64,000 nucleotides of DNA, from the NCBI GenBank assembly GCA_965287045.1, contig OZ336876.1, forward strand, positions 51,088,001 through 51,152,000, given 5' to 3'. The stretch comes from Carcharhinus amblyrhynchos. Lineage: Eukaryota. Positions 12,266-59,739 of this stretch are shown here, piece after piece (within the stretch, counting starts at the first letter, position 1; the number at the start of each line of letters is the position of its first letter). The notes beneath the pieces were generated by a model that worked only from the letters and a program-made list of their open reading frames with translations, did not search any database and was not told the DNA's origin. Made by a program: the position numbers and the translations under genes.

Positions 12266-14724
12266 TCATGGGTGAGGTACCAGAAGATTGGAGAGTGGCA
12301 AATGTTGTCCCTTTGTTTAGAAAGGTTGGCAGGGAAAAGCTGAGAAACGACAGGTCAGTGAGCCTCACATCTGTAATGGGTAATTGGTTGGAAGATATTT
12401 TGAGAGACAGGATCTACAGACATTTAGAGATACAAGGACTGATTAGGGACAGTCAGCCTGGCTTTGTGAGTGGAAAATCATGTCTCACAAATTTGATTGA
12501 AATTTTTGAAGGAGTAACCAAGAAGGTAGATGAGGGCAGTGCAGTTGATGATGTCTACATGGACTTTAGCAAGACCTTTGACAAGGTACTGCATGGTAGG
12601 TTGTTGCATAAGGTTAAATCTCACGGGATCCAGGGTGAGGTATCTAAATTGGCTTGTTGATAGAAGCCAGAGGATGGTTGTAGAGGGTTGTTTTTCAAAC
12701 TGGAGGCCTGTGAGCAGCAGTGTGCCTCAGGGATCAGTACAGGGTCCACTATTATTTGTCATTTCTATTAATAATTTGAATCAGAATTTAGGAGGATTGG
12801 TTAGTAAGTTTGCAGATGACACCAAGATTGGTGCCATAGTGGACAGTGAAGAAAGTTATCTCCGATTGCAACAGGATCTTGATCAATTGGGCCAGTGGGC
12901 TGACAAGTGGCAGATGGAGTTTAATTTAGACAAATGCGAAATGATGCATTTTGGTAGACTGAAACAGGGCAGAACTTACTCAGTTAATGATAGGGCACTG
13001 GGGAGAGTTACAAAACAAAGAGATCCAGGGTACATGTTCATAGCTCCTTGAAGTGGAGTCACAGGTGAAGAAGGCATACAGCATGCTTGGTTCATTGGTC
13101 AAAATGTTGAATACAAGAGTTGGGATGTCTTGTTGAAGTTGTACAAGACATTGGCAAGGCCACACTTGGAATACTGTGTACTGTTCTGGTCACTGTATTA
13201 TAGAAAGGATATTATTAAACTAGAAAGACTGCAGAAAAGCTTTACTAGGATACTTGATGATTTGAGTTATAAGGAGAGGCTGGAAAGACAGTGACTTTTT
13301 TCTCTGGAGCGTAGGAGGCTGAGGGGTGATCTTATAGCATCCATAAAATAATGAGGGGAATAGATAAGGTAGATAGTCAATATCTTTTCCCAAAGATAGG
13401 GGAGTCTAAAACTAGAGGGCATAGGTTTAAGGTGAGAGGGGAGAGATATAAAAGTGTCCAGAGAGGCAATTTTTTCACTCAGAGGGTGGTGAGCGTCAGG
13501 AACAAGCTGCCAGAGGTCGTAGTAGAGGCGGGTACAATTTTGTCTTTTAAGAAGCATTTAGACAAGATGGTAATAGATCAGTGGCGTAGCCAGGTTTGAA
13601 GGTTAGGGGGACCGAGCACATAAAAAAGGTGCCACAGAATAAAAAATGACCACCCTCTCATTACTATTCTGCCAATCCCCGCCGTGTCCAGGCCCTGCTC
13701 CACGTTGACATCATCACAGTCTGGTGTCATCACGATGTACGCAAAATAACCGTTCTTTTCTTGGTAATTTACTTTCTTTCCTTTAAAAAGATTTATTTTT
13801 GAAAAGGCGCCACTTCTGAAAAATGACTACTACTGAAGCCCGTCCCACTGACAGAGTGGGACTGAGGAGCCGTGTCTGGATTGGCGGAGCTTGTGGACGC
13901 GCCATGCTGTGATTGGTGAACTCAGTTGTCAGTCACCGCTGAGTGAGGTCCTGTGTACCGGATTGACGGAGCGGCGGGGGGGGGGGAGGTTGGGGTGACG
14001 TATCGTCCTAGGATTGGCTTATCGAGCTGTCAGGCAGGCGGTTGGGTGTGGATCTTTCCAATAAATCACAATATATAACCACATTAAATTTACATTAAAA
14101 ATCAATAATCACAGGTAGACTGTAATTAATGAATTCCGTGCATGAAGTTCAAAAGGCATTCAAAATCTCCTCGCGTGGACACTTGCAGACAGTAGGAAGG
14201 ACAATGAATATTTCTCTCTGACATAAGCATCTCAGGAGTGCTGCGAGATAGTTAATTTCAATAGAGAAAAGGGATATTTCAACTTCATAACTTCTGGCTT
14301 GACTTTGTGACAGAATTAAAAGATACAGTGTAAATAATAAACGAGTATTGGTGTGTTTATCCACTCACCGCACTGCACTTTACATGAGTGTTTCTGCCAT
14401 TCAGTTCCTAGGTTATGTACACTCCCAATACAGGTTTCAGCTTCTCTGTAAACTTGTCAGTTAGTGGATAAGGAGTTGTGCTCGGTTTATCGAGCTGTCA
14501 GTCAGGAGATTGTATGTGGGCGGGAGTTAGTATAAAAGGCGCCACTTCTGAAAAATGTGCTCAGCAGTTGCTCCCCCTGCGCCCACCCTAGCTAAGCTAC
14601 TGGTATAGAGGGGTATGGGTCAAATGTGGGTAATTGGGATTAGCTTAGGGGTTTAAAAAAAAAGTCGGCATGGACAAATTGGTCTGAAGAGCCTGGTTCT
14701 ATGCTGTACACCTCTATGACTCTA
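12266..14724 (+). mobile_element. CR1 LINE (RT domain to 3' tail), interrupted by a ~1 kb DNA transposon at 13579-14602
   Basis: Frameshifted RT fragments VPEDWRVANVVPLF, SCLTNLIE, YMDFSKTFDKV, VPQGSVQGP, SKFADDTK. The 3' tail resumes at 14603 and ends ctatgactcta. Collinear with the uninterrupted sister copy at 44923-46663. Confidence 0.92.
13579..14602. mobile_element. Non-autonomous hAT-like DNA transposon nested in the CR1
   Basis: Terminal inverted repeats cagtggcgtagccagg / cctagctaagctactg (13/16 match). Degenerate ~8 bp target duplication gtaatagat / gtatagag. Subterminal direct repeat aaaaggcgccacttctgaaaaatg at ~13802 and ~14534. No ORF. Confidence 0.8.
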
Positions 14725-22240: not shown

Positions 22241-24802
22241 TTATCGTACCACCAGACAAGAAACACATAATTTAGATGGTCCGATGCAATCATCATGACA
22301 AAATGCCCCGCATCCCTTACACATAATCATGGCTTTAAGCCTGCAATAACATTTAGAAGGTGAATCCTCCACGTTGCCACCTTCAGGAAATGTTTGGGCA
22401 GATTGGCTGCTTGTATTTATTGACTGACCAGCAGGAAGTGTTGTCACAGTAACGGAGAATGACACCATATTTCCAGAGTTGTTTGAGACTTGGCTGTACA
22501 CAGACATTCCTGTGACTGTGGAGCAATGGTTTACAGATGAAACAGAAGGAACATTGATACTGCTACTATGAACAGGTCTAAATGCAAACTGGGAACTTGC
22601 ACGGTTTCCATGAGAAGGAAACTTTTGTTGGTGTTGGGCAGGCTGTTGAAATCCTACAGGCAGGTTGGATATCCTATACGGGTCTTGGTGACTCTGTGTT
22701 AATTTGCCGCCACCAATATGAGCTAAATTTGACTGGATTCCCTGATAGAATTCTTTAGCCACTTGTGTAGGAGACAGTAAAGGAGTGTTCTCCTTTCCAG
22801 TATGTCTATAATCATGTGTGGATGCTTCCACTTTCAAATATCCACTGGATAAATTATCTACTCGAGGGCAGGCAACGGCATCACCCGTTTGGGTGGGATC
22901 CTGTTCTGTTTTAATTAGTACAGATGGAGGATGACAGGGCACTGACCTGTTAATTGATTCTGATGTTACCTGAATGCTACCATCAACTTGTTTTGTTCTG
23001 TCTTCCTTAAGATCCTTCTCAGATGTTTCTATCAGACCATTTATACCAGCAGAAGTCTCAGTGTTCTGAATATGGGCTCTTTTCCAGCTCTCTGAACCTC
23101 TTCCATAGGTAGCTGTATTAAGAAGGTAATGGCCAGATACAGCTGGCTTAAGAGCAGACTTTGTGCCCATCAAACCAAATCGTGATCTTTGACCAACTGA
23201 AATACCTGCAGAGGGAAAAGCTGAACTGTTGACTTCGTGCTGTAAAGACACAGGGACTAAGATTTGACCCTGCACATTGCTCAGTATGGCCTGCTGTATC
23301 CTTTCTTGTGATGTGCTGTTGAGCATTTCTGGTTGACTGCAGTCTTGATCAGTGTCTCTGACTTGCTGCTCTTCATTGGTAGAACTGTGCTGTGTGGCCT
23401 GTTCAAACAACTTCTGTTGTCTGTGTTGATCAATTGATCCAACAACTCGTTCTGCTATTGTTTGAGATTGTCTTCCTTTGATAAGATCAGTAGATACCTC
23501 ATCAGACCCGTGAATCACAGTGGTGGCACTTCCCTCAGTCACAGATATGACTAATGTGCCATCAGGTGATGTCTTCATTTTATCATCAAGTGAAGTTTTA
23601 GGAAACTGAAATACAGGCTTCATCTCAACTTTGGTTAGAGGCTTAGGCAGGAATTGCTCTAGTGGCACTTCTTTCCCTTGCAACAACTGTGTAACCAATG
23701 GGTTATTGGCAGGGATGGAGGAACCAGTTTTTGGCACAGCTCCACAAACAGGTCCTTGTGTTTTAAGGCTAGGTACATTATGTGAAGTGCAAACTGAAGG
23801 TGTAGATGTAGTAGATGCAATGATAGGGCTTTCTACATTTGTAATTGTTTCAGAAACTGGGGAGGCCACTTCCAAAGTTCCAGCTGTGCTTCCAGTTGCC
23901 ACAGAAATAGAACCAGCTGCTGTGACAAACACATTGGCTGAAGTGGAAACCTGATGGCCTCTTTGTGTATCAAAAGAAATGGAGGGCAGCTGAGTATTTG
24001 CAGGCAGTTTTCTGTCCACATTTGATGCTCTAACACGAGAGTCTATCAAAGGCTGGTTATTCATTTCACCTGGTTTATCGTGCACTGCAAAATTTCCTGA
24101 GCTTTGAGTTCCTCCCTTTGTATACTCAGAATTTCTGAAAACAGGTACAGGTTTCAAAACTGCTCTCGAGGTTGGACTGGACATCTGGTTTATAGTTTGT
24201 GTCTGCATTGGTGCAGGAGTGGCTTTTGTTGCAGCATTGCTTGTTGTCACTGAAGTTGTCTGCAAGGATGATAGTGAAGTCACATATGTTGCTGCATGTA
24301 CACTTGATATTGTTAATGCTGGTGTTGTAATTGTGGTTGCGGATTTGCTGGGGTCTGTATTGCTAACTGCAAATACGCACTGCGCCATGGGGGCTTGCTG
24401 TAATTGTGTTCTCGCATCCATACCGGTTGGAGTATTGGCCGTTGCATCTGCACACTTTGTAGGTTGTTGTCCTGGACTATCAAACAAGGGCCCTCCAATA
24501 CCTCGCCTGCCTCCAGTTCTGTCCATGTCCAGTGTGCTCCCCTGTCCTGAGATTCTACTGATCCCAGTCCCAGTCCCTCCTCCCCCTCCACTCCCTCCCC
24601 CCGGACCTGGGCCTGGAACTGCTCCACCTGCAGCTGCGGCTGCTGCTGCACGTTGTGCCTTGGCAAGTTGAGCTTTAGCTTTGATGTCTGCAAGAGTTCT
24701 GGCTCCAGTTCTCCCAGGACTAGGGACGAGCAGTGGGAAAGTGGCCCTTGGAGAGACCTGACCAGTCTGGGTAGGCACAGGTCTAATTCTTGAGACTGGA
24801 AT
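22241..24802 (-). CDS. ASXL2: ASXL2 last coding exon (end of ASXM1, ASXM2, C-terminal PHD finger)
   Basis: Acceptor ccttacag|ATT at 24802. Reads IPVSRI...QVSPRA...[24 protein letters not shown], then [16 protein letters not shown], and ends [44 protein letters not shown] and CYCRLK/CVSCL match ASXL2 rather than ASXL1 or ASXL3. The ORF-track start (24850) is intronic. Confidence 0.97.
24313..24756 (-). CDS. Overlapping +1-frame transframe (TF) ORF of ASXL2, putatively reached by ribosomal frameshifting
   Basis: Stop-free from the AG_GTC_TCT site to the TAA at 24313: [36 protein letters not shown]...[12 protein letters not shown]...QHQH*. The last 126 codons are ORF 24313..24693. Contains EHNY at 24411-24400. 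Confidence 0.75.
24752..24759 (-). promoter_or_regulatory. Putative -2 programmed ribosomal frameshift site AG_GUC_UCU
   Basis: Zero-frame codons CAG GTC TCT (Q-V-S). A -2 slip re-pairs the A-site tRNA perfectly on UCU. Matches the RG_GUC_UCU motif described for vertebrate ASXL2 and arterivirus nsp2TF. Confidence 0.7.
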
Positions 24803-27314: not shown

Positions 27315-28062
27315 CTTAAGAGGTGGGACTTTGAGTTCATGTGGCTCATCTTTGTTTCTGGGAAAGTCCTTTGGTGGGGTCCGAAATAACTGGTGGTCCA
27401 CAATGCGGGGTCTTTTCTCAGGACTGAGCAGAGACTCTCCTTCATTGGTAGATTTCCTCTTCAGACCCTCTGCAGTAACTTCCATTTGTTCAGTGGAATC
27501 TGGGACTTGGTCTTGCTTGGAAGACTCTTTGGTCTTGCTTTCCACTGATTCAGAAAGCTCAGGCTTTTTACATTTAGATGTTTCTGAACTCTCCGACTTC
27601 AGCTGCAGTTTGGGCTCATTTTGGTTTAATTTTGGCTTAGGTACCAAGGCTTTAGCCTCTGGTGAGATGACAGAGCCTATTTTTAAAGTTTGATTATCTT
27701 GTTGCAGCACTGAAGTTACACGGTCTACAGCCACCTTCTTCTTAGACAGGTTACTAATCTCTGAGGATTGATTGTCTTCATGGTTTTTAATAACTGGAGC
27801 TGATTTAGTGACAGATTGTTTTGAAGAGGCTGCAGATTTTGCTGTTTCTTCAACCTTTTCTTCTACTTTCAGCATCACTACTTCTTTGGTCATTGCTTTG
27901 TTGTTGGTTACTCCTTTTGGCTCAACTGGTGTTTCTGCCTTGATGGAAGTGTCTTTTTTGACTGATTGTAGAGGGGCTTGTTTGGATGGAGGGCGTTGAC
28001 GTTCCTCAACAATATTCGATAATGCAGTCAGCTTTTCTGAGTCTTCCAGACTTATACCAGAA
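27315..28062 (-). CDS. ASXL2: ASXL2 penultimate coding exon (748 nt; SGISLEDSEKLTA...SPEKRPRIVDHQLFR...KVPPLK)
   Basis: Acceptor ttttacag|T at 28062 and donor AAG|gtac at 27315. Phase 2 in and phase 0 out, matching both neighbours. KVPPLK joins IPVSRI to form the ASXM1 start. Confidence 0.95.
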
Positions 28063-28819: not shown

Positions 28820-28925
28820 TTTTGACCGTAGTAATTCTCAAAAAAGCTTTCCTTCCATTGTTCCACCTTCTTTTCTTTTTCTATCTCTTGTCGTATTCTC
28901 AGCTGCATCTCTGGAGTGAACTCTC
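28820..28925 (-). CDS. ASXL2: ASXL2 coding exon (106 nt; [35 protein letters not shown]), end of the DEUBAD domain
   Basis: Acceptor tctgcag|GA, donor AA|gtaagc; highly conserved ASXH peptide. Not present in the ORF track. Confidence 0.96.
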
Positions 28926-56579: not shown

Positions 56580-56676
56580 CTTCTGACAGCCGTTCCTTCC
56601 ATCCCTGGGCTGCAGAAGTAAAGAATTCATTATTCAGTGCTGAGGTGCTCAAACGCATCAAACCATCTGTACCCAC
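56580..56676 (-). CDS. ASXL2: ASXL2 coding exon (97 nt; [32 protein letters not shown]), DEUBAD domain with the NEF motif
   Basis: Acceptor ttttcttgtag|GTG, donor G|gtgagt; phase 1 out matches the 106-nt exon. Confidence 0.96.

Positions 56677-59514: not shown

Positions 59515-59739
<225 letters not shown>

Follow-up and report, generated by a model that had tools for sequence, protein, structure and literature searches.

All three ASXL paralogs of the shark Carcharhinus amblyrhynchos contain a homologous UUU_C, followed by an open +1 frame which ends shortly after the same motif. The TF ORF of ASXL2 is confirmed and was already known. What goes beyond the literature that we found, and was observed in this genome, is a UUU_C located upstream in ASXL2 and, in shark ASXL3, the site, the ORF and the motif, all intact; a literature search which covered few subscription papers returned no report of the shark ASXL3 TF frame or of the upstream ASXL2 site, and figures or supplements may bear on this point. 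We infer from the sequence both that the shark TF frames are translated and how they would be entered, and we propose that one ancestral +1 slip on UUU_C may feed TF in all three paralogs, a proposal whose chances we put a little short of even.

Dinan, Atkins and Firth (2017; PMC5644247; this paper and the others are cited here from partial texts) put forward, as a hypothesis, a +1 slip on UCC_UUU_CGU for ASXL1 and a -2 slip on RG_GUC_UCU for ASXL2. They reported the ASXL2 TF ORF in ghostshark, excess synonymous conservation over the TF ORF for tetrapods and the lack of TF in teleost ASXL2; in the available part of that paper, ASXL3 is said to be without a conserved long +1 ORF and without a conserved EHxY, and an influenza-like site is stated to be absent from ASXL2 and ASXL3. 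A 2026 preprint (10.64898/2026.05.28.727796) reports selection on both frames in ASXL1 and ASXL2 as well as an ASXL1 peptide, and prefers alternative splicing; the ASXL1 site is described as not validated in the accessible text of the PLEKHM2 paper (PMC11451614). Conserved frameshifting is very rare in vertebrate nuclear genes, and it has been a puzzle since 2017 that two unrelated slip mechanisms should serve one homologous ASXL1/2 ORF; the paralogs of this shark point to one candidate site of ancestral origin.

The window, i.e. the whole stretch of DNA that was analysed, comprises 64,000 nucleotides of C. amblyrhynchos (GCA_965287045.1, contig OZ336876.1, positions 51,088,001-51,152,000). 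Its minus-strand gene encodes the chromatin regulator ASXL2: the closest match is Mustelus asterias ASXL2 (97% across the exon's first 150 residues), followed by further sharks, rays and a chimaera among the ASXL2 matches listed (best 120 of 356). It has the composition of an ASXL1/2 ortholog, namely DEUBAD exons, an ASXM region and a PHD finger (PHD_3 in Pfam) at the end of the last exon. Exon boundaries were placed from AG/GT splice signals and homologous proteins (Table 1). An intron of ~27.7 kb (window 28926-56579) separates the DEUBAD-coding exons 10 and 11. The paralogs were located by a PHD_3 profile search of the genome, which gave three genes; that on C16 is ASXL1-like and that on C8 is ASXL3, its closest matches being annotated as such (98% to Mustelus over 130 residues; best 120 of 377 ASXL3/ASXL1 matches).

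Table 1. Features of ASXL2 in the window and of its two paralogs elsewhere in the genome
Feature	Position	Strand	Remarks
ASXL2 exon 9 (DEUBAD start)	59569..59732	minus	
ASXL2 exon 10 (DEUBAD)	56580..56676	minus	
ASXL2 exon 11, end of DEUBAD/ASXH domain	28820..28925	minus	phase-2 donor
ASXL2 penultimate coding exon (exon 12, human numbering)	27315..28062	minus	748 nt, phase 2 to phase 0
Upstream part of open +1 frame, 3' end of ASXL2 penultimate exon	27315..27460	minus	49 codons
UUA_UUU_CGG, candidate +1 shift site	27381..27389	minus	24 codons before last junction; homologous to ASXL1 UCC_UUU_CGG and ASXL3 UCC_UUU_CAG
ASXL2 last exon, coding part	22241..24802	minus	zero frame 853 aa; PHD finger 22250-22414
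TF ORF inside ASXL2 last exon, +1 frame	24313..24801	minus	162 codons plus TAA
Second AG, 7 nt inside ASXL2 last exon	24796..24797	minus	use would also enter TF frame; not conserved
AG_GUC_UCU, published candidate -2 shift site	24752..24759	minus	without CCCANCUCC 9-10 nt downstream
+1-frame EHNY	24401..24412	minus	fits HCF-1 binding consensus [DE]HxY; zero frame there RTQLQ
ASXL3	site G000:C8:72753218; last exon from 72744147; TF stop 72743786	minus	UCC_UUU_CAG, EHNY
ASXL1	site G000:C16:22109540; 22105893-22105499	minus	UCC_UUU_CGG, EHSY

A preliminary description of this DNA had the gene, the TF ORF, its motif, the source paper and the predicted domain swap right. It drew the +1 run as 148 codons, from 24759 to the TAA at 24313, and the product of a -2 slip as about 146 new residues; both are as described. 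On the minus strand the 148 codons extend from 24759 to 24316 with the TAA at 24315-24313, and a -2 slip, with UCU re-read, adds 146 residues from LQGP to QHQH, including LEAGE and EHNY. The stretch is indeed open, but it does not start at GUC_UCU: no +1 stop occurs from the exon's first base (24802) onwards or, once the inferred splice is taken into account, from 27460 onwards, giving 211 open codons in the inferred mRNA, whereas no other +1 run of the last two ASXL2 exons is longer than 69. The same description took an intact shark copy to date the system to early jawed vertebrates; the copy is intact, but the dating is not new, because a ghostshark copy was already reported (PMC5644247).

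The shark ASXL2 TF feature is real. The length sought for a TF ORF (~130-160 codons, ending in the last exon) was found, with 146 codons after GUC_UCU and 185 after UUU_C, and both LE[AE]G[EQ] and, near the TF end, EH[N/S]Y are present. The ORF, RG_GUC_UCU and these motifs are shared with published ASXL2-TF (PMC5644247), and the peptide is close to the published ghostshark one, QHQH end included; the difference is that the open frame of the shark extends another 40 codons upstream and takes in a UUU_CGG whose homologue is the ASXL1 site. A Pfam search of the TF peptide returned no family. As for an independent AUG start, three +1-frame AUGs occur within 27315-27460 (minus strand of the window), and the human ASXL2 TF frame is without AUG.

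How often such frames would be open by chance was estimated by recoding the protein of the zero frame with synonymous codons, drawn according to their usage in the three shark ASXL genes (20000 trials). The 148-codon stretch as first drawn was open in 1461 recodings (7%), so that this single sequence goes only weakly beyond chance. The 40 codons between the ASXL2 +1 site and GUC_UCU were open in 896 (4.5%). From UUU_C to the stop, the frame was open in 17 (ASXL1), 69 (ASXL2) and 274 (ASXL3) of 20000 recodings; those that were open and also had a [DE]HxY motif numbered 1, 10 and 21, respectively.

In each of the three shark genes a zero-frame TTT followed by C lies shortly past an EK[RK]PR motif, at TCC TTT CGG in ASXL1 (26 codons before the last junction), TCC TTT CAG in ASXL3 (26) and TTA TTT CGG in ASXL2 (24). 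All three in-frame UUU_C sites are followed by an open +1 frame, and the open runs, which cross the last junction and end with EH[NS]Y and a stop, measure 196 codons in ASXL1 and 194 in ASXL3, besides the 211 of ASXL2. Neither the upstream UUU_CGG of ASXL2 nor the ASXL3 TF ORF had been noticed in the preliminary description. Vertebrate ASXL3 as published has no conserved long +1 ORF or EHxY (in the part of the source available), whereas the ASXL3 of this shark has both, with UCC_UUU_CAG. Given the residues, TTT_C at all three shark sites has a chance probability of ~0.02 (0.72 x 0.24 twice, x 0.72), and this coincidence is modest evidence. The codons of the ASXL2 site are those of two species, this shark and human, all others being known at the protein level. 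In human ASXL2, UUU_C recurs at codons -24 and -17 as in the shark, the site itself being CCA_UUU_CAG, and no stop interrupts the +1 frame from 17 codons upstream onwards (both read by eye, with the junction placed by homology). Shark ASXL2 likewise has a second in-frame UUU_C 7 codons past the first. In shark ASXL1 the site has CGG, as in ghostshark, and a second UUU_CGG occurs 7 codons on.

Among the closest known systems are influenza PA-X and PLEKHM2-FS, with which the ASXL sites share the P-site UUU_C core, independence of a stimulatory structure and a long overlapping +1 ORF; the RNA fold at the ASXL2 +1 site gave z = 0.1. The sites of PA-X and PLEKHM2 have been measured and have the full YCC_UUU_CG context, whereas the ASXL sites are candidates, of which only that of ASXL1 has this context. 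Shark ASXL2 has the UUU_CGG core at the codon homologous to the ASXL1 site (UCC_UUU_CGU/CGG) but UUA in the E site, shark ASXL3 has CAG in the A site, and human CCA_UUU_CAG also departs from the full context. In influenza, UUU_C is the tested core: altering UCC cuts slipping by 40-70% and altering CGG halves it, neither change abolishing it (PMC3498833). Slipping reaches about 1% in influenza PA-X and PLEKHM2, with +1 slipping of about 1.3% on the UCC_UUU_CGG of PLEKHM2.

Conservation of the sites was surveyed among proteins grouped by species name, using the best 120 of 356 matches for ASXL2 and the best 120 of 377 for ASXL3/ASXL1. The ASXL2 set, from which 8 matches without a species name were set aside, includes a single mammal; most of its members are birds, amphibians or cartilaginous fish. 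A +1-frame EH[NS]Y forces [RG][TA]QL in the zero frame; such protein footprints are necessary, not sufficient, for TF. Among these best 120 of 356 ASXL2 matches, the footprint is present in 89/95 non-teleosts versus 0/17 teleosts; several of the six non-teleost misses seem to be due to gaps in the gene models, and the tuatara protein reads RPQL. Phe is found at the upstream site in all 92 anchored non-teleosts (3 of 95 could not be anchored), and the residue that follows it is R or Q in 90, with a single H, a single C and never K. This set of residues suggests CGN codons at the site, even though CG begins no more than 28 of the 115 Arg codons of these shark exons. Among the same matches, F[RQ] occurs in 0/15 anchored teleosts, and Scleropages has Pro in place of Phe in an alignable stretch. 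Phe-[Arg/Gln] may also be kept for a function in the zero frame. Tuatara ASXL2 is without the VS of the -2 site; it retains SFR, and its RPQL would fit DH[NS]Y (protein only).

For the paralogs (best 120 of 377 matches), the strict footprint of ASXL3 is present in 13/16 cartilaginous fish versus 0/56 bony vertebrates, counts which include one and two proteins without a species name, respectively, and F[RQ] in 9/15 cartilaginous fish (8 sharks and a chimaera) versus 1/53 bony vertebrates. Rays and skates have Phe in 0/6 and the strict EHNY footprint in 5/6; that batoid ASXL3 retains the footprint without Phe argues against the +1 reading. In Narcine ASXL3, both Phe and footprint are gone. QSFR and the footprint are present in 48/48 ASXL1 proteins of this set. 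The correlated losses amount to two or three events rather than many independent ones. A loose [DE]HxY footprint was discarded as uninformative, being present in 32/56 bony ASXL3 proteins (best 120 of 377 matches). Dipeptides that force a +1 stop between the two ASXL2 sites were found in 0/86 proteins (9 skipped; best 120 of 356 matches), but this was rejected as evidence for TF: bony ASXL3, which is without TF, also gives 0/53 in the matching region, so that the test does not discriminate. A metagenome scan for relatives of the end of exon 12 gave 593 pattern matches, none of which was confirmed.

In the published model, a -2 slip on G_GUC_UCU early in the last exon adds the 146 residues, and ASXL2 has an entry of its own dating from after the duplication, which possibly replaced, or joined, a decayed +1 site; we consider this doubtful. 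The G_GUC_UCU slip site of arterivirus nsp2TF is present in shark ASXL2, in the zero-frame codons CAG GTC TCT (24760-24752, minus strand), its A-site re-pairing on UCU would be perfect, and simarterivirus reporters show -2 slipping on G_GUC_UCU (PMC6675879). The strongest nucleotide conservation in print is also on the side of this model: RG_GUC_UCU is invariant in sampled ASXL2 except in lizard and teleosts, with varying neighbours, and it lies at the 5' edge of synonymous conservation, which is reported to begin there (PMC5644247); this counts against the +1 reading. At the protein level, xVS is found in 94/95 named non-teleost ASXL2 proteins (best 120 of 356 matches). Most teleosts lose the RG_GUC_UCU codons yet keep QVS (15/17 teleost ASXL2 proteins; best 120 of 356 matches), which ties the site to TF. 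However, the arterivirus slip requires CCCANCUCC 9-10 nt downstream together with viral nsp1beta and PCBP (PMC6675879). This C-rich stimulator was looked for 9-10 nt 3' of the shark GUC_UCU and is absent, no cellular counterpart of nsp1beta is known, and the RNA fold of the 46 nt from GUC_UCU is no better than that of shuffles (z = -0.9). Moreover, Scleropages retains RG_GUC_UCU yet has a TF of only 20 codons (PMC5644247), ASXL3 is left unexplained as there is no such site near its TF, and one homologous ORF would need two unrelated mechanisms. The ASXL2 TF system had been called established in the preliminary description; the ORF and RG_GUC_UCU are in print, but the -2 mechanism is a hypothesis according to its own authors (PMC5644247). 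It cannot be taken as the settled entry, given that the 2026 preprint favours alternative splicing, that the C-rich stimulator is absent and that the frame could be entered upstream, through a +1 slip or exon skipping. The -2 and +1 entries may both operate.

Alternatively, there would be no recoding, and a minor transcript that skips the penultimate exon would encode a far shorter DEUBAD-TF protein, a single mechanism serving all three paralogs; we think this improbable. Skipping would put the last exon in the TF frame because the penultimate exon is entered in phase 2 and left in phase 0; with 748, 751 and 1099 nt, its length is 1 mod 3 in each gene, and in each of them the last exon is open in the +1 frame from its very first base. 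Skipping would also account for the batoid ASXL3 proteins with the EHNY footprint and without Phe, and splicing plus duplication is the most parsimonious course according to the 2026 preprint, which in the part available does not name the event (10.64898/2026.05.28.727796). On the other hand, exon phase is inherited and is no proof, and a splice form that reaches TF, whether annotated or supported by databases, was not found by Dinan et al., as far as the available part of their paper goes (PMC5644247). Skipping also leaves unexplained the invariant QSFR of ASXL1 (48/48; best 120 of 377 matches) and the conserved TF peptide within ASXL1 exon 12. When we looked for proteins of greater length that contain the TF peptide, a weak test, we obtained 0/720 scored candidates. 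By sequence, both exon skipping and use of the acceptor 7 nt inside the last exon would lead into the TF frame. The latter was rejected as a general route, given that human has CCG GUC and that the residues of ghostshark and Carcharodon differ; CAG followed by GUC was likewise rejected as a conserved cryptic acceptor, since R or W precedes VS in 7/95 proteins (best 120 of 356 matches).

That the ASXL2 frame has no useful translation in sharks, being a relic or a by-product of a zero frame rich in Gly, Ala and Pro, is very unlikely: the first-drawn stretch is open in 7% of recodings, and direct ASXL2 translation data were not found in the accessible parts of the ASXL-TF and PLEKHM2 literature, but the longest +1 run is at the same place in three paralogs, each time ending just past EH[NS]Y over differing zero-frame words, the shark TF peptide is near that of ghostshark with a shared QHQH end, and both-frame selection for ASXL1 and ASXL2 and an ASXL1 peptide are reported (10.64898/2026.05.28.727796).

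Under the +1 reading, tRNA-Phe in the P site would shift from UUU to UUC at the UUU_C of the penultimate exon in a small share of ribosomes, perhaps a few tenths of a percent for shark ASXL2, where the codons of the E site (UUA) and the A site (CGG) would lower the rate. HARE-HTH and DEUBAD would be retained in the product, whereas ASXM2 and the PHD finger would be replaced by 185 new residues, a tail predicted to bind HCF-1 via EHNY. The TF transcript should escape nonsense-mediated decay because the TF stop is in the last exon, as argued by Dinan et al. (PMC5644247). The site, ORF and motif would predate the ASXL1-3 duplications and have been lost from ASXL3 in bony vertebrates and from ASXL2 in teleosts; G_GUC_UCU would be a later second entry, or reflect constraint on the +1 peptide ([R/G]-S-L). 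In its fullest form we hold the proposal still more tentatively, at somewhat below an even chance: a pre-duplication slip on UUU_C would still feed TF in shark ASXL1, ASXL2 and ASXL3, ASXL3-TF would persist in sharks and chimaeras, and ribosomes would really enter ASXL2-TF, in human too (CCA_UUU_CAG), in the penultimate exon and not at the arterivirus-like site.

If so, the shark ASXL3 TF would make the system older than the paralog split, and a single switch of ancient origin would probably account for a shortened ASXL form predicted to resemble disease-causing truncations. For human, a longer ASXL2-TF tail would be predicted, with 40 more codons that are possibly dual-coding; pathogenic truncating variants sit in the last two exons, where the extra dual-coding codons fall.

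Two plus-strand frames were also observed in the window. A 187-codon stop-free frame antisense to the TF region (24108-24671) is probably a by-product of codon bias. Downstream of ASXL2, an ORF at 12530-13051 that encodes part of a reverse transcriptase domain (RVT_1, E = 8.6e-13) is likely a retrotransposon fragment.
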